DNA of 64,000 nt from an uncultured Acidimicrobiia bacterium (GTDB lineage Bacteria > Actinomycetota > Acidimicrobiia > Spongiisociales > JAENVV01). Below the pieces are notes generated by a model. The model worked only from the letters and a program-made list of their open reading frames with translations, ran no database searches and had not been told where the DNA came from. Below are positions 2,878 to 32,752 of the stretch, one piece after another. Numbering within the stretch: the first letter of the stretch is position 1; the number at the start of each line of letters is the position of its first letter. The DNA lies in contig CAZTLW010000001.1 of assembly GCA_964614585.1 (NCBI GenBank), forward strand, positions 4 through 64,003, written 5' to 3'. The translations under genes and the position numbers were made by a program.

Positions 2878-4151
2878 GGGGCCTCCTCGTCGAGATGGGT
2901 GATGCGGCCGCCGAAGACGGTGGCGACGACCCGGCCGCCGAGCTCCCGCCCCACCCAGGGGGAGTTGGCGGACTTGGAGCGGAAGACCGGGCCGACCGTC
3001 CAGCGACGATCGGGACCGAACACGGTCAGGTGACCGATCCCGCCCTCGGCGGGCCACTGGCCGTGGGCGTCGAGTTGGGCGATGCGGGCGGGTCGCACGC
3101 TCAGGCGGTCGAAGAAGTCGACCGGTCCGAGCCCGACGTCGGTGTGGACGGCGGCCGCCGCGGTCTCGAGGCCGATCACCCCGCGGGGCGCCTCCTCGAA
3201 GGGGACGTCCTTCTCGTTCGCCGAGTGCGGGGCGTGGTCGGTGGCGACGGCGTCGATGGTGCCGTCGGCGAGGGCCTCGGCGAGCGCCGCCCGGTCGTCG
3301 GGCGTCCGCAGCGGCGGGTACATCTTGGCGACGCCGTCCATGGCCTCGACCAGCCCGTGGTCGAAGGCGAGGTGGTGGGGGGCGACCTCGGCGGTCACCG
3401 GGAGCCCCGCCGCCTTGGCCTCGGCGACGAGGCGCACGGTGCCGGCCGTGGAGACGTGTTGGACGTGGTAGCGACAGCCGGTCAGCTCGACGAGGCGGAG
3501 GTCGCGGGCGACCACCACCTCCTCGGCCACGGCCGGCAGCCCGCGCATGCCGAGGCGGGCCGAGACACTGCCCTCGTGCATGTGGCCGCCCCGCGCCAGG
3601 CCCGGGTCCTCGGCGTGTTGGGCGATGACGGCCCCGCGGTCGGCGAGGTACTCCATCGCCCGGCGGAGGACTCCCGCGTCGGCGACGGTGTCGCCGTCGT
3701 CGGAGAAGAGCCGCGCCCCGGCGGCCCAGAGCTCGTCGAGGTGGGCGAGTGCCTCACCGCGTCGGCCGAGGGTGATGGCGCCGGCGACGGCGACGTCGAC
3801 GAGGCCGACCTCCCGCCCCCTGGCGACGACGTGGCGGGCCACGTGGCCGGCGTCGATCGCCGGCTCGGTGTTCGGTTGGGCCACGACGGCGGTGAACCCG
3901 CCGGCGGCGGCCGCGTCCGACCCGGTGGCGACGTCCTCCTTCCACTCCTGGCCCGGTTCGCGCAGGTGGACGTGGAGGTCGACCAGTCCGGGGCCGATCC
4001 AGGCGCCGCGGCAGTCGATGGTGGCGTCGACCCCGTCTCGGGGCAGGTCGGGACCGATCCGTTCGATGACGCCGTCGACGACGAGGACATCGGCGGTGAT
4101 GGTGCCGTCGGCGCCGACGACGTCGCCGTCGGTGAGCAGGAGCCTGGTCAT
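2874..4151 (-). CDS. pyrC: dihydroorotase PyrC
   Basis: [12 protein letters not shown]...[10 protein letters not shown]...DHAPH motifs. ATG at 4151-4149; the upstream part of ORF 2874..4763 is a read-through artefact. Overlaps the pyrB stop (ATGA). Confidence 0.9.
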
Positions 4152-5059
4152 GGCGATCCCCCCAGCAGGTGGAAGAGGACCGCCATTCGGATGGCGACCC
4201 CGTTGCGGACTTGGGTCGTGACGAGTGAGCGGGGCCCGTCGGCCACGGACGGGTCGATCTCCACCCCACGGTTCATCGGCCCGGGGTGGAGCACGACGGC
4301 GTGGTCGGGAAGCCGGTCGCCTCGGGCCACCGTGAGGCCGTAGCGATCGATGTACTCCGCGACCGAGGGGAACACGTCGCCGCCGCCGCGTTCGGTCTGG
4401 ATCCGGAGCAGGTAGACGGCATCGAGGTCGGGGAGGATGGCGTCGAGGTCGTCGGTGACGTCGACCGGCCAGTCCTCGACCGTCGGGGGGAGCATCGTCC
4501 GAGGCCCCACCAGCGTCACCCGGGCCCCGAGGGTGGTGAAGGCGTCGATGTCCGATCGCGCCACCCGGCTGTGGCGGATGTCGCCGACGAGGGCGATCCG
4601 GAGCCCGGTGAGTTCGCCGAAGTGCTGGCGGAGGGTGAGGGCGTCGAGCAGGCCCTGGGTGGGGTGCTGGTGGGCCCCGTCGCCGGCGTTGACGGTGGGG
4701 ACGCCGGTCCACTCGGCGATGCGCCACGGCGCCCCCGTGGCGGTGTGGCGGACGACGAGGCACTCGGGGCCCATGGCGAGGAGGGTGAGGGCCGTGTCCT
4801 TGAGGCTCTCGCCCTTCGAGAGGGACGAGCCCGACGGCGAGAAGGCCATCGTGTCTGCCGACAACGCCCGAGCGGCCCGGTCGAACGAGAGCTTCGTGCG
4901 GGTGGACGGTTCGAAGAAGAGCATGGCGACGGTGCGGCCGCGCAGGGCGGGGACCTTGGGGATGGGTCGCTCGAGGACCTCGAGGAACTCGTCCGCCTGG
5001 TCGAGGAGCCCCGTCATCGTGGTCTCGCCGAGGTCGCGGAGCGACAGCAGGTGGTTCAC
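4148..5059 (-). CDS. pyrB: aspartate carbamoyltransferase catalytic subunit PyrB
   Basis: [10 protein letters not shown]...[12 protein letters not shown]...HPTQGLLD... Probable GTG start at 5059-5057, by analogy with MKHLLSIDDL-type N-termini. 4-nt overlap with the pyrR stop. Confidence 0.85.
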
Positions 5060-5679
5060 GGTCGCTCCAGGAGCACGGCGTCGGCGCCGTCGACCTCGTC
5101 GACCTGGACGGTCACCCGCTCGCCCGAAGCGGTGGGCAGGTTCTTGCCGACGTAGTCGGCGCGGATGGGGAGTTGGCGGTGGCCGCGGTCGACGAGCACC
5201 GCCAGTTGGACGGCGGCCGGCCGGCCGAGGTCGGCCAGGGCGTCGAGGGCGGCCCGGATCGTGCGACCGGTGTAGAGGACGTCGTCGACGAGCACCACGG
5301 TGCGGCCGTCGAGGTCGACGGGGATGTCGGTGCGGGCGAGGACGGGGGTCGGGCGGGTGCCGAGGTCGTCCCGATAGGGGCCGATGTCGAGGGTCCCGAC
5401 CGGCACCTCGGTGCCGGTCACCTCGGCCAGGTCGGCGCCGAGGCGGCGGGCGAGCGGGACACCTCGGGTGTGGAGGCCGACGAGGACGACGTCGTCGACG
5501 CTGCGGCATCGCTCCACGATCTCGTGGGCGATCCGACGCAACGAACGCCGCACGTCGGCGGCGTCGAGGATGGTGGCGGTCACCGCTGACCGCCGTTCGT
5601 GTGTCGCATTCGGCTCCTTCCCGGCCTCACGGGACCGGCTTAAAGGGTTCGTCCCCGACCCTAGCGCCTCGGACGCCAA
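5056..5679 (-). CDS. pyrR: bifunctional pyr operon regulator / uracil phosphoribosyltransferase PyrR
   Basis: ...[21 protein letters not shown]...[17 protein letters not shown]...[20 protein letters not shown]...[24 protein letters not shown]. Start at ATG 5679; an alternative GTG at 5583 would give 176 aa. Mycobacterial PyrR also carries a ~20-aa N-terminal lead. Confidence 0.8.
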
Positions 5680-5761
5680 CCCTGGGTTGTGAGCGTCGCC
5701 TTCCCGCCGACCCTGGGTTGTGAGCGTCGGATTCCGACGCTCACAGCCCTCGGTTGGCGCC
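5675..5761. repeat. intergenic palindromic repeat element, family 1 copy A (ccctgggttgtgagcgtcg arms; two direct copies plus one inverted copy around an attc loop)
   Basis: Direct inspection: aaccctgggttgtgagcgtcg (5679-5699), gaccctgggttgtgagcgtcgg (5709-5731), inverted ccgacgctcacagccctcggttgg (5735-5758). Outer arms cgccaacc/ggttggcg pair. The same element recurs at 32665-32752. Confidence 0.8.
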
Positions 5762-5790
5762 GACCGAGGATCGTTGGTCCCGCCCGATCG

Positions 5791-6177
5791 CTAGTGCGGC
5801 GGCGCCGGTCCGGATGTCCGTTCCGCCGCCACCGCCGAGAGGACCCCGTTGACGAACGGTGCGCTCTTCTCGGTCGAGTAGGCCGAGGCGAGGCGGGCCG
5901 CTTCCGAGAGCACCACACCCGGCGGCGTGTCCTCCCACAGCAGTTCGTAGACGCCCATGCGGAGGACGGTGAGGTCGACGACGGGCATGCGATCGGTCCG
6001 CCAATGGGCGGAGAGCCGGTTGAGCGTGGCGTCGATGTCGGCGAGGTGCTCGGTGACCCCGTGGACGATCCGCGCCGCCTTCCCGGTGAGGGGCCCCAGA
6101 TCGGGCTCCTCGAAGCCGCGCCGCTCGGCCTCGTAGAGGATCTGCAGCGCCCGGTCGCGTGGTTCGCCGTCGGTCAC
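5791..6177 (-). CDS. nusB: transcription antitermination factor NusB
   Basis: 128 aa, MTDGEPRDRALQILYEAERRG...NGVLSAV, NusB family. 4-nt overlap with the efp stop. Confidence 0.9.
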   Translation of the reverse strand: MTDGEPRDRALQILYEAERRGFEEPDLGPLTGKAARIVHGVTEHLADIDATLNRLSAHWRTDRMPVVDLTVLRMGVYELLWEDTPPGVVLSEAARLASAYSTEKSAPFVNGVLSAVAAERTSGPAPPH

Positions 6178-6731: not shown

Positions 6732-6780
6732 GGCCCGGCGAGGGTACCCGTCCGCCGGCGCTGCACCGCCCCGGAGCGCC

Positions 6781-6915
6781 GTTCTTGTGTCGTCCAGCCC
6801 TTCTCTCGAGGGCTGGACGACACAAGAACGGGCGTGGGCGGGCCTGTCACCGGCGTTCTGGTCGGGCGGGGCCATGCCTGGGACGGTTGAGCCCGACAAG
6901 AACGAGCGTGGGCGG
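6781..6915. repeat. intergenic palindromic repeat element, family 2 (20-bp perfect hairpin plus partial second copy)
   Basis: gttcttgtgtcgtccagccc (6781-6800) pairs perfectly with gggctggacgacacaagaac (6810-6829); loop ttctctcga. The right-arm motif gacaagaacg(a/g)gcgtgggcggg recurs at 6894-6915 and a related copy sits at 43660-43720. Lies downstream of the aroB stop, so it may also act as a terminator. Confidence 0.75.
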
Positions 6916-10998: not shown

Positions 10999-11750
10999 CC
11001 GAGCTCCTCGACCCCCTGGCCGCCGGGTTCCGCCTCGACGGCGACCGCAACGAGGCGGTGGTGCTGCTCCATGGCTTCACCGGCGTGCCCGCCCACTTCC
11101 GGCCGCTGGCGGGCGACCTGCACGAGGCCGGGTACACGGTGATCGTGCCCAGGCTCGCCGGCCACGGCACGTCGATGGAGGACATGGACCGCACCGGCGC
11201 CGACGACTGGATCGAGAGCGCCACCGCCGCCTACGAGGAGGCGGCGGCCGACAAGGCCCTCGTCCACCTCGGCGGCCTCTCGATGGGCGGCCTCATCTCC
11301 ATCCTGCTCGCCGCCCGGCTGCCGGTGGCGTCCGTGACGACCATCGACAGCCCGGTCGTCGTGCGCGATCCGCGCAGCTACGTGGCGCCCCTGTTCGCCC
11401 GGTGGATGCCCGAGATCCGCTGGGAGGAGGAGCAACTCGACCTCGACCCCGAGGTGGAGCCCTATTGGCTGACCTACCCGGGCTTTCCGACCCGCCGGCT
11501 CGGCGATCTCAATCGCATCATCGGCCGAGCGCTCCTGGCCGCCCGCCGGGTGGACGTCCCCGCCCTCGTCATCCAGTCGAGGACCGACGAGACGGTGGCC
11601 TCGATCAGCGCCCGCATCCTCGCCAACGCCTTCACCGGTGACACCCGCCTCGTCTGGCTCGAACGGTCCATGCACAACGCCCTGCTGGACCGGGAACGGG
11701 ACGTGATCTCGGCGGCCGTCCGATCCCACCTGGCGGACGCCGCTCCATGA
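10995..11750 (+). CDS. alpha/beta hydrolase (carboxylesterase / lysophospholipase-like)
   Basis: [12 protein letters not shown]...VVLLHGFTG...HLGGLSMGG (GxSxG nucleophile elbow). Its ATG overlaps the MFS stop (ATGA). It is the C-terminal part of ORF 9876..11750, whose N-terminal region is an out-of-frame artefact. Confidence 0.8.
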
Positions 11751-11777
11751 CCGAGGCCCCGGGGCATCGCCCCGGGG
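11749..11777. terminator. bidirectional intrinsic terminator-like hairpin between convergent genes
   Basis: gaggccccgggg-catcg-ccccggggcctc: 12-bp GC stem with a 5-nt loop, immediately after the hydrolase stop. A second hairpin ggccgg-tgaag-ccggcc follows at ~11804-11820. Confidence 0.6.
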
Positions 11778-11822
11778 CCTCGTCTCGATACTCGGTACTC
11801 GGTACGGCCGGTGAAGCCGGCC

Positions 11823-16002: not shown

Positions 16003-16476
16003 CTAGTCCCATCCGCCGACGCACTCGGCGAGGGTGTCGAGCGACGCTCCTCCGGTGAGCGACCGGCCGAAGCGGGTGCCGGTGTTGGAACCGCTCACCT
16101 CGTCGGCGAGGCAGTACCACTCACCCGACTCACTGGCGGTCAGGAAGATGACTGCCTGGTCGGCGGTGCCATCGGTGTTCGGCAGGATCAGGAAGCCGAC
16201 CTGGTCGTCGGCCGGGGCATTGCCGGCCACGAACTCGAGGTTGGCGTGGACGTCGTCGAGGTCGGCGACGGCGAAGCCGTAGTCCTCCTCGTCGGTGTAG
16301 TAGACGCGGGCGGCGGTGAGCGCATTTCGCAAGTCGCTCTGGGCCGACCGGTCCTGGGCTCGGACGCGGGCTCCAAGGAAGACCGGGATGGCGATCGCCA
16401 GGAGAATGGCGATGATCAGGACGACCACCATCAACTCGATCAGCGTGAAGCCCTCGTCCCGCTTGATGCGGGCCAT
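16003..16476 (-). CDS. pilA: type IV major pilin (PilA-type), prepilin with class III signal peptide
   Basis: MARIKRDEG|FTLIELMVVVLIIAILLAIAIP: prepilin cleavage/methylation motif (G-FTLIE). C-terminal Cys pair (disulfide loop). 157 aa. Confidence 0.9.
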   Translation of the reverse strand: MARIKRDEGFTLIELMVVVLIIAILLAIAIPVFLGARVRAQDRSAQSDLRNALTAARVYYTDEEDYGFAVADLDDVHANLEFVAGNAPADDQVGFLILPNTDGTADQAVIFLTASESGEWYCLADEVSGSNTGTRFGRSLTGGASLDTLAECVGGWD

Positions 16477-16600: not shown

Positions 16601-17101
16601 CTACCAGGAGGCGCCGTTGCACTCGCCGGCGGTGTCGACATCGACGAGTGCCGTCTCGCTCGAGGCGAAGAACGTGCCGGAACCGGCACCGGTCGCCGTC
16701 TCGTTGATGCAGAACCAGGTCCCCGACGCCGACTGCTTGGCGAAGGTGATCTGCTGGCGATCGGTACCGGCAACGCTCTCGACCGCATAGCCGACGTTGT
16801 CGGCATCGGACGCAGCGATGGCCACGAACTGCAGGCTCGGCTCGATCGCCTCGAGCTGGGCCACGGTGACGTCGGCCCCAGCGCCGTCCGAGAAGTCCTC
16901 GGTGTCCGTGTAGTGCACCTTCGCCGCCGTGAGGGCGTTCCGAAGGTCCGACTGGGCGGCCCGGTCCTGGGCACGCTCACGGGCACCGAGGAAGGTCGGG
17001 ATGGCGATGGCAATCAGGATGGCGATGATGAGCACCACGACCATCAGCTCGATGAGGGTGAAGCCCTCATCCTTCTTCAGCTGGTTGCGGATCCACGACA
17101 T
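16601..17101 (-). CDS. pilA: type IV pilin paralog (PilA-type), prepilin
   Basis: MSWIRNQLKKDEG|FTLIELMVVVLIIAILIAIAIP... N-terminal 40 aa nearly identical to pilA1, with a C-terminal Cys pair. ~166 aa at the C-terminal end of ORF 16601..17887; the rest of that ORF is antisense to pilC and was rejected. Confidence 0.88.
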   Translation of the reverse strand: MSWIRNQLKKDEGFTLIELMVVVLIIAILIAIAIPTFLGARERAQDRAAQSDLRNALTAAKVHYTDTEDFSDGAGADVTVAQLEAIEPSLQFVAIAASDADNVGYAVESVAGTDRQQITFAKQSASGTWFCINETATGAGSGTFFASSETALVDVDTAGECNGASW

Positions 17102-18577: not shown

Positions 18578-20170
18578 CTAGGCGACGCGTCCGAGCAGGC
18601 GCCGCAGGTCCTCGATGTTGGTGCAGCGCTCGACTGCGGTGTCGAAGTCGATGACGTTCTGGCGGACCAGGTGCGCGAGCGACTGGTCCATCGTCTGCAT
18701 GCCGTGCTTGCCGCCGGCCTGCATCGCGGTGGTGATCTGGTGGATCTTCGCCTCCCGGATGAGGTTCCGGATCGCCGGCGTCGCCAGCATCACCTCGGTC
18801 GCCACCGCCCGCGAGCGGCGGTCACGCGTGGGCAGGAGCTGCTGGGTGACGATCGCCTGGATCGTCGCGGCCAACTGGACCCGCACCTGCGACTGCTGGT
18901 GGCTGGGGAACACGTCGATGATCCGGTCGATCGACTGGGGGGCGTCCTGGGTGTGCAGGGTGGCGAACACGAGGTGGCCGGTCTCGGCGGCGGTCAGCGC
19001 GGTCTGGATCGTCTCGAGGTCGCGCATCTCGCCCACGAGGATCACGTCGGGGTCCTGGCGCAGGGCGTGCTTGAGGGCGGCGCCGAAGTCCATGGTGTCC
19101 GCACCCACCTCGCGCTGGTTCACCAGCGCCCGCTTGTGGGTGTGGACGAACTCGATCGGGTCCTCGATCGTGAGGATGTGGCACGACCGCCGCAGGTTGA
19201 TCTGGTCGATGATCGATGCCAAGGTCGTCGACTTGCCCGAACCGGTCGGCCCGGTGACGAGCACGAGCCCGCGGGGATACTCGGCAAACCCGTCGAGCAC
19301 CTTCGGGAGGCCGAGCTCCCCGAGCGGCTTGACCACCTCGGGGATGGCCCGGAAGACGGCGCCGACGGCGTCGCGCTGGAAGAAGACGTTCATCCGGAAG
19401 CGGGCATGGCCGGGCACGGGGTGGGAAGCGTCGAGTTCGAGCGTGTTCTCCAGCGTCTCGCGCTGCTTCTCGGTGAGGATCGAGTAGATCATGGCCCGCA
19501 ACTCGGCCGGGGTGAGGACGTCGTAGTCCTCCAGCGCCGTGAGGTGCCCATTGATGCGCACGATCGGCTTGGTGCCGGCGGTCAGGTGCAGGTCGGAGCC
19601 GGCCCGTTCGAGCAACTCGAGGAGCAGCGTGTTCGGATGGACCCGGGGGATCTCGTCCTGGCGGGCCGCGGCGATGCGTTCGGCGTCCCCGCCGACCCCG
19701 GGGGGGAGTTCGACGCCGAAGATCCCGTCGATCGCCTTCTCGATGGCTCGCGCCGGGGCGACGGCGACCCGGATGCCACACCCGGCCCGTGCCTCCACCC
19801 GGTCGAGGACCTCCTCGTCGTAGGGGTCGGCGACGGCCACCTTCAGCTCGTTGCCGACCATCTCGATCGGCACGACCTGGAGGGCGCGGCAGGTGTCGGC
19901 GTCGAGGCGGTGGACGATGTCGGGGGCGAAGATGATGCCCTCGAGGTCGACGTACTCGAGGCCCACCCGGGCGGCGAAGACCCGGACGAGGTCCGCCTCG
20001 AGCACCAGGCCCTCGGAGACGACGAGCTCGTCGAACGAGGTGCCGGTCTCCTCCTCGAGGGCGAGCAGTCGCTCGAGTTGGTCGCGCGAGAGGAGACGCT
20101 GGTCGACCAGCAGTTCGCCGAGGGTTCGTGAGTGGTTCGCCATGTCCCGTTGCTCCTTCGTCCGTACCAA
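18578..20170 (-). CDS. pilT: twitching-motility retraction ATPase PilT with N-terminal MshEN/T2SSE_N-like domain
   Basis: C-terminal region carries Walker A GPTGSGKSTT, IEDPIEF, and AIRNLIREAK (PilT/PilU signature). The N-terminal ~170 aa has tandem RTLGELLVDQRLLSRDQLERLL / FDELVVSEGLVLEADLVRVFAARVGL motifs resembling MshEN. Start may be the ATG at 20143. Confidence 0.85.
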   Translation of the reverse strand: MVRTKEQRDMANHSRTLGELLVDQRLLSRDQLERLLALEEETGTSFDELVVSEGLVLEADLVRVFAARVGLEYVDLEGIIFAPDIVHRLDADTCRALQVVPIEMVGNELKVAVADPYDEEVLDRVEARAGCGIRVAVAPARAIEKAIDGIFGVELPPGVGGDAERIAAARQDEIPRVHPNTLLLELLERAGSDLHLTAGTKPIVRINGHLTALEDYDVLTPAELRAMIYSILTEKQRETLENTLELDASHPVPGHARFRMNVFFQRDAVGAVFRAIPEVVKPLGELGLPKVLDGFAEYPRGLVLVTGPTGSGKSTTLASIIDQINLRRSCHILTIEDPIEFVHTHKRALVNQREVGADTMDFGAALKHALRQDPDVILVGEMRDLETIQTALTAAETGHLVFATLHTQDAPQSIDRIIDVFPSHQQSQVRVQLAATIQAIVTQQLLPTRDRRSRAVATEVMLATPAIRNLIREAKIHQITTAMQAGGKHGMQTMDQSLAHLVRQNVIDFDTAVERCTNIEDLRRLLGRVA

Positions 20171-20216: not shown

Positions 20217-21899
20217 TCAGACCGTGACCCGGAGGACCTCCTCGAGGCTGGTGTCGCCCGCGGCCACCTTGCGGAGCCCGTCGACGCGCAGCGGCGTCAT
20301 GCCCTGCTCGAGCGCCTTGTGGGTGAGCGCCTCCGTGGTGGCGTGCTGGACCACCATCCGCTCCACGTCCTCGGTCATCGTCATGAGTTCGTGCACCGCC
20401 ATGCGTCCCCGGTAGCCGGTGCCGGCGCACGCCGTGCAACCCACCGCCCGAAAGATGGTGGCGTTCCCGCCGGGGTCGACCACGGCCGGGTCCCACCCGA
20501 TGCGGTCCAGGGCGTCCTGGGTGGGCTCGTGCGGCTCCTTGCACTTCGTGCACAGGCGCCGGGCGAGGCGCTGGGCGAGCACGGCGTCGAGCGCCGACCC
20601 CACGAGGAACGGCTCCACGCCCATCTCGATGAGGCGGCTGACGGCGGCAGGCGCCGTGTTGGTGTGGAGGGTCGACAGCACCAGGTGACCGGTCAGCGCC
20701 GATTCGATGGCGATGTTGGCCGTCTCGAGGTCCCGGATCTCGCCCACCAGCATGATGTCGGGGTCCTGGCGGAGGAAGGAGCGGAGGGCGTTGGCGAAGC
20801 CGAGCCCCGCCTTGCGGTTGACCTGCACCTGGTTGACACCGGCGAGCCGGTACTCGACGGGGTCCTCCACGGTGACGATGTTGCGCTCGGCGTCGTTGAG
20901 CACGTTGAGGGTGGCGTACAGCGTCGTCGACTTGCCGGAGCCGGTGGGGCCGCACACGAGGATCGTGCCGTAGGGCCGGCGAAACGCGTCCTGGTAGCGC
21001 TCGAGGTTGTCGTGGTGGAAGCCGAGATCGGTGAGGTCCAGCATTGCCGTCGAGTTGTCGAGGATCCGCATGACGACCTTCTCCCCGTAGATCGTGGGGA
21101 GGGTGGAGACACGGAGGTCGACCGACCCGCTGGGGGTCTTCACCGAGATGCGGCCGTCCTGGGGACGACGACGCTCGGCGATGTCGATGTCGGCCATGAT
21201 CTTCAGGCGGGACACCACCCCGGCGAGGAGCCGGCGATTGGTGCGCATCACCTCGTGGAGCACACCGTCGATTCGGTAGCGGACGCGGACGTCGTGGTCG
21301 CCGGGCTCGACGTGGATGTCGGAGGCGCCATCGCTCACTGCTTTGAGGATCACCTGGTTGACGAACTTGACGATCGGGGCGTCCGCGGACGCGGCCTCGA
21401 CCGCGGCCAGGTCCTCCACGTCGATGCCGTCCTCCGACGACCCGACGAAGTCGCTGACGGCGTCCTCGAGCGAACCGAGGCGCTTCACGACCGCATCGAT
21501 GTCGGGCTTCATCGCCACGTGCAGGTCGATCGATCGCCCGGTGGCGGCCTGGATGTCGTCCTTGGCGAGGATGTCGTAGGGGTTGGCGGTGGCGACGAGC
21601 AGCTTCTCGCCGTCGAAGGCGTAGGGGATCGCCTGGTGCTTGCGAGCCAACGGCTCCGGCAGGAGGGCGGCGGCAGCGGGGTCGACGGTGATCTCGCCGA
21701 GGTCGACGAACTGGTAGCCCATGTGCTTGGCGATGACCCGAACGAGCGTCTTCTCGTCGACCAACGACTCCGCCACGACGTACTTGGACAGGGTCATGCC
21801 TGCCGTCTCGGCCGCGTCGGCGGCCGAGTACAACTGGTCGTAGGTGAGCAGGCCCTCCTCGATGAGGACGGCTGCGACACCGGCCTGTTCCTCGGTCAT
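20217..21899 (-). CDS. pilB: type IV pilus assembly (extension) ATPase PilB (GspE family)
   Basis: 560 aa, N-terminal T2SSE_N-like region (LIEEGLLTYDQLYSAADAAETAG), Walker A GPTGSGKSTT, VEDPVEY, tetracysteine CTKC...CTAC motif. Confidence 0.9.
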   Translation of the reverse strand: MTEEQAGVAAVLIEEGLLTYDQLYSAADAAETAGMTLSKYVVAESLVDEKTLVRVIAKHMGYQFVDLGEITVDPAAAALLPEPLARKHQAIPYAFDGEKLLVATANPYDILAKDDIQAATGRSIDLHVAMKPDIDAVVKRLGSLEDAVSDFVGSSEDGIDVEDLAAVEAASADAPIVKFVNQVILKAVSDGASDIHVEPGDHDVRVRYRIDGVLHEVMRTNRRLLAGVVSRLKIMADIDIAERRRPQDGRISVKTPSGSVDLRVSTLPTIYGEKVVMRILDNSTAMLDLTDLGFHHDNLERYQDAFRRPYGTILVCGPTGSGKSTTLYATLNVLNDAERNIVTVEDPVEYRLAGVNQVQVNRKAGLGFANALRSFLRQDPDIMLVGEIRDLETANIAIESALTGHLVLSTLHTNTAPAAVSRLIEMGVEPFLVGSALDAVLAQRLARRLCTKCKEPHEPTQDALDRIGWDPAVVDPGGNATIFRAVGCTACAGTGYRGRMAVHELMTMTEDVERMVVQHATTEALTHKALEQGMTPLRVDGLRKVAAGDTSLEEVLRVTV

Positions 21900-25116: not shown

Positions 25117-25170
25117 GTGGGTACCGAGTACTTCGTACTGAGTACTCGGTACGTGGTACTCGGTACCCGG
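25117..25170. repeat. cluster of GTAC-containing palindromes (ggtaccgagtac / gtactgagtac / gtactcggtac x2)
   Basis: ggtaccgagtac (25120-25131) is the perfect reverse complement of gtactcggtacc (~25157-25168), with nested palindromes between. Related motifs lie downstream of other genes (see findings). Confidence 0.7.
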
Positions 25171-29615: not shown

Positions 29616-29640
29616 GCTCTCAGTACTCAGTACCGAGTCC

Positions 29641-31410: not shown

Positions 31411-32621
31411 GTGGCCACCTCCAGGCGATCGATGTCGGATTCGGTGCCGTCGGCCATGCGTCGGGCCCGCACGATCCCGGCGTCCCATTCGTCACCCACC
31501 ACGAGCGTCACCGGGGCGCCCGACCGGTCGGCGGCCTTGAACTGGGCCTTGACCGAGCGTCCGGGGTCGGTGGCGTCGACGCGCAGGCCGTCGCGGCGGA
31601 GCTCGGAGAGCAACCGGGCCGACTCGGTGGCCCGCTCCCCCGCCGTCACGACGAAGGCGTCGAGGTCGGCAGGCGGGGTCTCGTCCCCGAGCGCCAGGAT
31701 GATCCGGTCGACGCCCATGGCGAGGCCGACGCCCGGCACCCGGCGCCCACCGATCTCCTCGGCGAGGCCGTCGTAGCGGCCACCACCACCGAGGGCCACC
31801 TGGGCGATGTCGAGCGACCCGCCGACGTATTCGAAGGCAGTGCGGGTGTAGTAGTCGAGGCCGCGGACGAGCCGCGGGTCGTCCTCCCAGGGCACACCAA
31901 CGGCGTCGAGTCGGGCCTTCACCACCTCGTAGGCGGCGGCGGCGTCGGCGCCGAGACGGTCCCGGGGCGTGGGTGCGTCCACGAGGAGCGGGGCGCACGT
32001 CTTGCAGTCCAGCACCCGCATCGGGTTGACCACCAGGGTCTCTCGGGAGTCGGCGCAGAGGTCGTCGACACGGTCCTCGAGCCACGACCGGAGCTCGGCC
32101 ACGTAGGCGGGTCGGTCGCCGGGGTCGCCGAGGGAGTTGAGCTGGACGACCACGTCGGGGACGCCGAGGTCGACGAGGAAGCGGTAGCCGAGCTCGATGA
32201 CGTCGGCGTCGGCCTCGGGCCGCTCGGTGGCGAGGTGCTCGACGCCGACCTGCCAGAACTGGCGGCGGCGGCCGGCCTGGGGCCGCTCGTAGCGGAACAT
32301 GGCGCCGCCGTAGGCGACCTTCAGCTCGCCCTGCAGGCCGGCGTTGAGGTAGGCGCGCACGACACCGGCGGTGCCCTCGGGGCGGAGTGTGACGGACCGC
32401 CCACCGAGGTCGGTGAACGTGTACATCTGCTTGCGGACGATCTCGGTGCTCTCGCCCACCCCGCGCTCGAACAACTCGGTCGCCTCGAAGAGCGGGGTCA
32501 TGGCCAGTTCGTACCCGAACCGCTCGGCCCAGTCGTCCCAGACGCGCAGGACGCGCCGCCAGGTCCGGGAGGCGGGCGGGAGGATGTCGTCGGTGCCCTT
32601 GGGCGGGCGCAGAGAGGCCAC
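31395..32621 (-). CDS. hisS: histidine--tRNA ligase HisS
   Basis: 408 aa, ...RPEGTAGVVRAY...MFRYERPQAGRRRQFWQ...GGGRYDGL. Confidence 0.9.
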   Translation of the reverse strand: MASLRPPKGTDDILPPASRTWRRVLRVWDDWAERFGYELAMTPLFEATELFERGVGESTEIVRKQMYTFTDLGGRSVTLRPEGTAGVVRAYLNAGLQGELKVAYGGAMFRYERPQAGRRRQFWQVGVEHLATERPEADADVIELGYRFLVDLGVPDVVVQLNSLGDPGDRPAYVAELRSWLEDRVDDLCADSRETLVVNPMRVLDCKTCAPLLVDAPTPRDRLGADAAAAYEVVKARLDAVGVPWEDDPRLVRGLDYYTRTAFEYVGGSLDIAQVALGGGGRYDGLAEEIGGRRVPGVGLAMGVDRIILALGDETPPADLDAFVVTAGERATESARLLSELRRDGLRVDATDPGRSVKAQFKAADRSGAPVTLVVGDEWDAGIVRARRMADGTESDIDRLEVATWLRS

Positions 32622-32664
32622 GGGGGCGGCATGGTACCGGCGCTCCCGCCCCCACCCACACCCG

Positions 32665-32752
32665 AACCGTCAACCCTGGGTTGTGAGCGTCGACAGCGGG
32701 TGGACCGAGGGCCGTGAGCGTCGGAATCCGACGCCCACAACCCAGGGTTGGA
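32665..32752. repeat. intergenic palindromic repeat element, family 1 copy B (inverted orientation relative to copy A)
   Basis: caaccctgggttgtgagcgtcg ... gagggccgtgagcgtcggaatccgacgcccacaacccagggttgg. Reverse complement aligns with 5709-5758 of copy A. Confidence 0.8.

Follow-up and report, generated by a model that had tools for sequence, protein, structure and literature searches.

In high-GC Actinobacteria, hairpins that lack a U-tract are said to act as 'terminators' at gene ends, where a repeated motif, TRIT, reportedly occurs as well; the terminator activity of such hairpins and of TRIT in vitro is disputed. Other short palindromic sequences form dispersed families. The REP and BIME sequences of Enterobacteria and Pseudomonas are RAYT-associated repetitive extragenic palindromes, and in REPs the palindrome is preceded on its 5' side by a conserved GT(A/G)G head (Nunvar et al. 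2010, PMC2817692). REPINs are doublets of REPs that form long hairpins (Bertels and Rainey 2011, PMC3116915; PMC3337134), and intergenic hairpin-forming repeats also include MITEs of the Correia and ERIC type (PMC3184786, PMC2229807). Our literature search retrieved no paper on a repeat family of the kind reported here in Acidimicrobiia, and none linking REP or RAYT with Actinobacteria.

Results

Two copies of a three-unit palindromic element

The window, that is, the whole stretch of DNA analysed here, comprises 64,000 nucleotides from an uncultured Acidimicrobiia bacterium. It has a G+C content of 70.8%, and according to gene calls from a codon model trained on its own sequence, nearly every gene lies on the minus strand. 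The gene order of interest is carB, carA, pyrC, pyrB, pyrR (5056-5583), a spacer of 207 nt (5584-5790), nusB (5791-6177), efp and aroB. The element studied here, E1, takes up 86 nt of that spacer (5674-5759), and not the whole pyrR leader as the original prediction had it. A second copy, E2 (32671-32750), which has the canonical three-unit form, sits between the gene of an MBL-fold hydrolase (stop codon 32753-32755) and hisS (start 32621). Each copy consists of three 22-nt units, two of them direct and the third inverted. In the window, CAACCCWGGGTTG-TGRG-CGTCG, the pattern of the unit, is matched five times against an expectation of 0.04, and none of 100 shuffled sequences reached five. The 19-mer CCCTGGGTTGTGAGCGTCG is found exactly at 5680-5698 and 5711-5729 in E1 and, inverted with three mismatches, at 5735-5753, in agreement with the two direct copies and the inverted copy across a loop that had been described before; in E2 it is exact at 32674-32692 and inverted, with one mismatch, at 32729-32747.

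Read on the minus strand, in the sense of the genes, E1 is ordered U1 (a degenerate 'b' unit), loop, U2' (a'), spacer and U3' (a'). The unit on the pyrR side, U3 (5677-5698, plus strand), reads C-AACCCTGGGTT-GTGAG-CGTCG and holds an intact 11-bp palindrome at 5678-5688. A spacer of 9 nt, ccttcccgc (5699-5707), separates it from the middle unit, U2 (5708-5730, plus strand; C-GACCCTGGGTT-GTGAG-CGTCG-G), which forms the 5' arm of a tight hairpin on the plus strand. The loop ATT (5731-5733) is followed by the inverted b unit (5734-5756; C-AACCGAGGGCT-GTGAG-CGTCG-G on the minus strand), located 35 nt past the nusB stop codon. A short extra inverted repeat, GCCGACCGAGG (5759-5769), can form pairs with the outer portion of the b unit (5748-5758). 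This repeat is found only in the window lineage and may be the relic of a fourth unit. In E2 the minus-strand order is U1 (an 'a' unit with GTGGG), loop, U2' (b'), spacer and U3' (a'). Viewed from the genes beside them, both window copies present the hairpin first and the extra unit second.

The inverted unit of E1 can pair with either the nearer or the farther direct copy. Two inverted repeats compete there, 5705-5731/5733-5759 (27 nt, 85%) and 5674-5698/5735-5759 (25 nt, 88%), and the direct repeats have a period of 31 nt, with unit starts at 5677 and 5708. The same direct period is found in E2, together with inverted repeats at 32671-32692/32729-32750 (95%) and 32704-32725/32727-32748 (77%). 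Compared with shuffled sequences, single-strand DNA folds gave z values of -4.7 to -7.7, with both alternative pairings appearing, and RNA folds in genomic context were 3.0-4.4 standard deviations more stable. The mutually exclusive hairpins proposed earlier are thus real. The opposite orientation attributed to the copy upstream of hisS holds for the 45-nt hairpin core, which matches best when inverted (95.6%), but not for the three-unit layout, where the match runs collinearly on one strand (81 nt, 80%). As for the peptide PTLGCERR, already dismissed as a by-product of nucleotide conservation, the ORFs that encode it are indeed shadow frames opposite nusB.

At the Rfam gathering score, the whole window returned no match. 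At E ≤ 10, the region around E1 returned only the PyrR site described below and noise, the hairpin itself giving miRNA-type chance matches with E ≥ 1.4. A reading of the element as an integron attC site was rejected, since GTTRRRY fits only the end of E2 and the neighbours are core housekeeping genes. Half-sites resembling those of CRP or LacI (TGTGA...TCACA, TTGTGAGCG) were judged coincidental, their spacing being wrong.

The pyrR control region is separate from E1

The PyrR-binding RNA in whose place E1 had been thought to stand is present beside it. A stem-loop, GAACCCUUUAAGCCGGUCCCGUGAGGCCGGGAAGGAG (5650-5614, minus strand), holds in its 3' arm the Shine-Dalgarno sequence GGAAGGAG (5621-5614). 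It matches the Rfam model RF00515 over 5541-5650, outside E1, with 30.7 bits (E = 0.021), a score below the gathering value of 54, and its core GGTCCCGTGAGGCCG is invariant in six relatives with 72-99% PyrR identity. E1 itself has no match to this PyrR model, whose binding-loop core is UCC.G.GAGGC. A candidate -10 box of pyrR, TAGGGT (5663-5658, minus strand), lies 14 nt downstream of E1 within the box GCTAGGGT. It follows the family pattern GCTAnGGT, which is invariant in the six relatives amid sequence that cannot be aligned. The variable middle base of this pattern would fit an actinobacterial TAnnnT -10 box and not a paired RNA segment, and TAGGGT is probably the -10 box of the pyrR promoter; a consensus promoter scan was negative at pyrR because there is no -35 box.

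A leader ORF of nine codons, read from the sequence as ATG CGA CAC ACG AAC GGC GGT CAG CGG TGA (5609-5580, minus strand), overlaps with its stop codon the GTG start of pyrR (GTGA, 5583-5580). Equivalent coupled leader ORFs are found in three related loci (L004, L051 and L052) and not in L053. In its layout, the control region appears to resemble the mycobacterial translational-repression type, with a PyrR loop that would sequester the Shine-Dalgarno sequence of the leader ORF and an ORF that would be coupled to pyrR.

The element-free relatives L052, L053 and L055 keep both the GCTAnGGT box and the PyrR loop. A comparison of pyrR leaders among relatives had been suggested by the original prediction, and it indicates that loop, Shine-Dalgarno sequence and box are conserved whether or not the element is there. 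E1 therefore neither replaces nor contains the PyrR site. Moreover, the conserved -10-like box between the PyrR loop and E1 places the element probably outside the pyrR leader RNA; most likely E1 is transcribed as the 3' end of the efp-nusB message, with the promoter of pyrR downstream of it. E1 is no RNA switch dedicated to pyrimidines, and the family as a whole is not pyr-specific either, since the E1 architecture occurs at many unrelated loci and the PyrR site is separate and conserved. At hisS (32619-32636, minus strand), a conserved ggTACCAT box is located 34 nt downstream of E2, and 9 nt separate its end from the GTG. This TACCAT-GTG arrangement, which is also found in L059, L060 and L061, suggests that the hisS mRNA is leaderless.

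Architecture of the family and constraint on its units

Fifteen three-unit copies, aligned with the tight hairpin first, share the layout U1, 3-nt loop, U2', spacer of 9-10 nt and U3'. The 'a' unit is C-AACCCWGGGTT-GTGRG-CGTCG-(G), with an 11-bp palindrome of its own centred on CCWGG, and the degenerate 'b' unit keeps GTGRG-CGTCGG, its outer part being AACCGWGGGCY. U3' is an intact 'a' unit (CGACGCTCACAACCCAGGGTTGG) in all 15 copies; the hairpin is of the a/b' type in E2 and eight others, and of the b/a' type in E1 and five others. A cluster always comprises one forward unit and two inverted ones, or the reverse complement of that. In every unit, GTGRG (GTGAG or GTGGG) stands before CGTCGG-loop-CCGACG and is paired with CYCAC on the opposite arm. 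Mean pairwise identity among the 15 copies is 0.97-1.0 in the CGTCG/CGACG stems, 0.8-0.96 in the GTGRG blocks and 0.94 in the U3' palindrome; it is 0.42-0.45 in the spacer, of which the length is fixed and the sequence is not, and 0.3 in the flanks.

Over these copies, 79% of cells are paired in the inner pairing and 87% in the outer one, and compensatory covariation exceeds column shuffles in neither. The high degree of pairing is therefore due to conserved columns and not to compensatory change, and we see no sign of an RNA selected for its structure. At the centre of each palindrome, W is A or T independently of the other palindrome (pair 19/93 of the 15-copy alignment), a pattern more in keeping with units recognised as duplex DNA than with pairing of the two arms. 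A recurrent GTGGG/CTCAC asymmetry produces an A.C mismatch in the mRNA in four of the six copies with a single upstream gene, so that the quality of the RNA hairpin does not seem to be optimised. The corresponding orientation test, G.U versus A.C, gave 2 versus 4 and revealed no bias toward the better RNA hairpin, and the orientation of the intact U3' toward downstream gene starts (6 versus 2-3) was not significant.

The sister metagenome-assembled genome (MAG), Acidimicrobiia bacterium RS1.bin36, carries E1 at the equivalent locus (L004). Between the window and this genome, 2 of 68 sites differ in the three E1 units, among which the unit at 5677-5698 is identical, as against 8 of 25 in the loop, spacer and flank (Fisher p = 3e-4) and 13.9% of the 4-fold codon sites (110/793; binomial test of the units against this rate, p = 0.003). 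One metagenome contig of 1 kb is nearly identical to the window, the loop being the sole difference. The loop, which reads ATT in the window, AAC in that contig and AAT in the sister MAG, is therefore free to vary. Judged from these alignments, the constraint on the units is one on primary sequence, without covariation, and such selection suggests that the units are recognised by a protein.

Dispersal and position relative to genes

A scan for the exact core, with one genome per species, returned 16 loci, 11 of which (ten distinct places) belong to RS1.bin36. All of these 11 have the three-unit layout; the other five matches are unrelated hairpins. A scan of metagenomes for the unit returned 33 contigs, mostly with a two-unit hairpin, gcgAACCCAGGGTT-GTGAG-CGTCG-ctgag-CGACG-nnnnn-AACCCTGGGTTcgc, and in the viral contigs and plasmids scanned there was no copy of either unit or element. 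The copy number amounts to two in the 64 kb of the window and to at least 10 distinct exact-core matches in the sister MAG, which is fragmented.

Copies of the family lie nearly always 1-30 nt past a stop codon, the neighbouring genes being tandem or convergent, and occur in either orientation; in 11 of the 13 copies of the window and the MAG, the stop codon is 1-6 nt from the element. About 17 gene contexts are tandem, about 11 are convergent and 2 are divergent, and all copies but two are intergenic. In three convergent cases (L009, L015 and L018), the element makes up nearly the entire spacer. Both orientations relative to the upstream gene are represented. Such a distribution, over many unrelated loci including convergent gene pairs, supports the earlier view that the element is no pyr-specific attenuator; a riboregulator would have been favoured by the existence of two copies only, both in 5' leaders of fixed orientation, and this is not what we found. 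The scan for promoter and terminator consensus sequences gave no site of either kind, and no T-run follows the hairpin on either strand.

Other repeats were seen in the same DNA. A second short family, GTACCGAGTAC, in tandem or inverted, gave 8 matches against 0.48 expected (11788-11805, 25121-25166 and 29623-29640), each site lying directly 3' of a stop codon: that of a gene ending at 11750, of ruvX and of aspS. Long perfect hairpins that are unique in sequence occur at 11752-11782 and 6779-6831; one starts 1 nt past a stop codon and the other, with a 24-bp stem, is located between aroB and efp. Hairpins next to stop codons thus seem to be a normal 3'-end signal of the window genome. In the sister MAG, locus L009 contains small intergenic palindromes (1940-2040 and 3480-3600) with GAACC(C/G)WGGGTTC-like cores and no GTGRG-CGTCG, which suggests that the 11-bp palindrome is also a stand-alone motif there. 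The direct repeats at 16339-16459 and 16952-17072, and at 19010-19064 and 20721-20775, are of another kind: they are paralogous coding segments, not intergenic ones, and belong to two adjacent pilin-like genes (FTLIELMVV N-termini) and two pilus ATPase paralogues.

Persistence, turnover and spread

The E1 locus and the E2 locus both hold an element also in relatives whose proteins are 75-79% identical. The nusB-pyrR spacer of L051 (79% PyrR identity) holds a degraded b/a'/a' element, and the MBL-hisS spacer is occupied in L057 (94%), L059 (77%), L060 (76%) and L061 (75% identity). In the latter spacer, U3' and its right flank can be aligned among the window, L060 and L061, which suggests an old copy that has been retained. 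L059 carries there an E1-type element in the opposite orientation, whose spacer GGCGGGAAGG is identical to that of E1 in the window, whereas the orthologous E1 copies of L051 and L004 have spacers unlike it. This identity between different loci and species points to the occasional copying or re-seeding of whole elements. One relative at 71% identity has at the E2 site a plain hairpin, GACTCCggcgGGAGTC, one base past the stop codon, and no element. The relative at 90% (L058) also lacks the element, but its synteny is different and insertion boundaries are therefore not definable. In the relative at 94%, a short-read contig ends exactly inside the E2 hairpin (L057, 1445-1500), consistent with an assembly break at the repeat.

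A phmmer search with the E. coli RayT protein against the six-frame ORFs of the window and 55 loci (about 0.4 Mb) gave a best E-value of 1.3. In the flanks of at least 15 copies the palindrome is prolonged (C...G), but a direct repeat that could be a target-site duplication is absent, and in the DNA examined there is no parent transposon with matching ends, the only insertion sequence (IS) seen being of the IS30 family. The mobile REP/MITE-like repeat of the original prediction is supported as a dispersed repeat at many unrelated loci, but its MITE part finds neither target-site duplications nor a cognate transposon. The IS30-family IS (387-aa transposase with HTH_38 and rve domains; L050 3486-4699 and L046 ~1-1165) lies in both loci within 2-3 nt of the hairpin loop and abuts different arm variants. 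These insertions indicate that the palindromes of the family are IS targets, as REPs are. An origin of the family as a MITE of the IS in L050 was rejected, because this IS has ends of its own and sits inside the hairpin. Mobility of the family is supported only indirectly, and the way in which it spreads is one that we infer.

A gene encoding an AbiEi_4 HTH together with a DUF559/MTES_1575 nuclease fold directly follows a three-unit element on two metagenome contigs, L041 (7503-8588) and L021 (2499-2891). In L041 there are elements on both sides of the gene, and its TAG stop codon lies inside the AACCTAGGGTT palindrome. No such gene occurs near the copies of the window or the MAG. From its gene neighbourhood, this protein could be a nuclease associated with the repeat, and in some lineages it is a candidate partner of the units.

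Discussion

A repeat in the proposed place of a terminator hairpin

We read E1 as a copy of a dispersed palindromic repeat of about 80 bp of the Acidimicrobiia that occupies the niche of a terminator hairpin, and not as a pyr switch, and we give this joint reading a probability of roughly 0.6. According to the scenario that we propose, the family would fill the position that ordinary terminator-type hairpins take in a compact genome. A very stable stem-loop would there end the upstream mRNA or shield its 3' end from 3' exonucleases, and would insulate the upstream transcript from the next promoter, a task for which either orientation would work. PyrR control would act separately, through the binding loop, the Shine-Dalgarno sequence and the leader ORF downstream. 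The units would be kept by selection on their primary sequence, some protein recognising them, and whole elements would now and then be copied into, or re-seeded at, sites that were either new or occupied before. We favour such a REP/BIME-like role because the family sits in a terminator-hairpin niche and is kept in it by selection; the 3'-end function itself, be it termination or protection, is a putative one, deduced from position and sequence. Against this reading stand the missing U-tract and the negative terminator scan, the pairings that show no covariation, the A.C mismatch, the independently varying W, the apparently low copy number and the search of about 0.4 Mb in which neither a RAYT nor another mobiliser turned up.

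Reading of the units by a protein, possibly as duplex DNA, would be the main rival of the favoured role or else its complement, and it is argued for by sequence-level conservation, the uncorrelated W and the A.C mismatch in four of six copies. Taken as a rival, it makes the element a duplex-DNA module on which a dimeric host protein would bind the CAACCCWGGGTTG palindromes or the 22-bp units, the RNA hairpin being incidental; the module could be a roadblock terminator, a nucleoid-organising site or, given its CCWGG centre, a site related to methylation or repair. Primary sequence conserved without covariation is what such a module should display, as are a central W that is A or T independently in both palindromes of one element, units under strong constraint beside loops and spacers that drift at fixed length, and an element that would function in either orientation relative to genes. 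However, no candidate protein was found, and the distance to the downstream promoter varies (14 nt at pyrR, 34 nt at hisS, no such promoter in convergent pairs). A role at the transcript end is the simpler explanation of the strict placement past stop codons, and the most invariant part, the inner CGTCGG/CCGACG stem, is sensible only as a palindrome or hairpin. We consider this alternative unlikely, if worth keeping in mind. A narrower version, in which the 22-bp unit or the CAACCCWGGGTTG core with its CCWGG centre is the site of a dedicated protein other than RAYT, and the three-unit module a factor-dependent, orientation-independent terminator or insulator of a lineage with few U-tract terminators, would amount to a new partnership between repeat and protein; it is offered here as a long shot.

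The element might instead be purely selfish, a non-autonomous REPIN (mobilised by RAYT) or MITE (by a DDE transposase) that is tolerated only in 3' untranslated DNA and has no role for the host. A dispersed family with conserved ends, a match that covers the entire element with its spacer between E1 and L059, which differ in locus and species, the assembly break inside the hairpin of L057 and the use of the repeat as a target by the IS30-family IS in L050 and L046, as known for REPs and ISs, would all be expected of such an element. The GTGRG motif next to a GC-rich palindrome also resembles the GT(A/G)G head and palindrome of REPs (PMC2817692). Yet copies are flanked by no target-site duplications, the sole transposase seen has different ends of its own and interrupts the hairpin, and the roughly 0.4 Mb searched hold no RAYT homologue. 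In addition, most copies have spacers and loops in which changes have reached saturation, beside units that remain about 90-100% identical; purifying constraint acts on orthologous copies; and useless palindromes of 80 bp should be lost from a streamlined genome; we therefore hold a purely selfish nature to be quite improbable. As to a pyr-specific attenuator or riboregulator, with alternative hairpins that switch pyrR-pyrB-pyrC-carAB in response to PyrR or nucleotides, the nusB-pyrR location and the existence of mutually exclusive pairings are in its favour. It can hardly be reconciled with E1-like elements after many unrelated genes and between convergent ones, with a PyrR loop and Shine-Dalgarno sequence that lie separately downstream and are kept in element-free relatives, with the -10-like box conserved between E1 and that loop, or with an element that has no Rfam match, and we give it next to no credence.

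Relation to known repeats and terminators

Coming back to a repeat in the terminator niche, we propose that the family works like REP/BIME. Common to both are a short, GC-rich, imperfect palindrome that is extragenic, dispersed and mostly found directly 3' of genes, clusters of units with a fixed spacing, the role of IS insertion target, conservation at the level of sequence and long persistence. The foot of the palindrome carries a motif that resembles the GTRG type, but GTGRG is here itself base-paired, unlike the head of classical REPs. On the other hand, each unit contains a nested second palindrome of 11 bp (AACCCWGGGTT), and there are always three units, one forward and two inverted, whereas BIME units alternate in orientation. 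The copy number is apparently in the tens and not in the hundreds (typical REPs exceed 100 per genome), the host belongs to the Acidimicrobiia, and no RAYT was found among the ~0.4 Mb searched. Because of the nested palindrome, the three-unit layout, the apparently low copy number, the host and a mobiliser that is at most hypothetical, membership in the RAYT-REP system is not established. With REPINs the family shares two inverted units with a short spacer and a long hairpin (U1 with U3'; 22 nt, 95% complementary in E2), as well as vertical persistence at orthologous sites over long times; it differs by a third unit inside the doublet and by spacers that are mostly unconserved, whereas in REPIN populations the spacer is part of the master sequence around which the members cluster. 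Like Correia- and ERIC-type MITEs, the element is non-coding, intergenic and hairpin-forming with terminal inverted repeats of about 22 bp, but it lacks target-site duplications, no IS that shares its ends was seen in the DNA examined, and it measures only about 47-80 bp.

A canonical intrinsic terminator has the hairpin in common with the element, which lacks the U-tract. Closer in this respect are the U-tract-less terminators and the TRIT motif, which reportedly also place a GC-rich stem-loop without a U-run right after stop codons in high-GC actinobacterial genomes, TRIT being repeated as well. Their sequence is nevertheless unrelated, and the three-unit architecture with its nested palindrome is, as far as those accounts go, undescribed there.

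Significance

The finding is a modest and fairly ordinary one, of a repeat family that is undescribed. Its immediate use is to avert a mis-annotation: the nusB-pyrR spacer holds no unusual pyr attenuator, and the PyrR site, the coupled leader ORF and what is likely the promoter are all conventional and lie apart from the repeat. In practical terms, such repeats break short-read assemblies and mark operon boundaries. A REP/BIME-like repeat family is added to the Acidimicrobiia, a class known mostly from MAGs, and this family is distinguished by an unusually clear purifying constraint on its units and by a position that is kept across genera. If the units are protein-recognised terminator modules, the family would bear on how transcripts are ended without U-tracts in high-GC Actinobacteriota.
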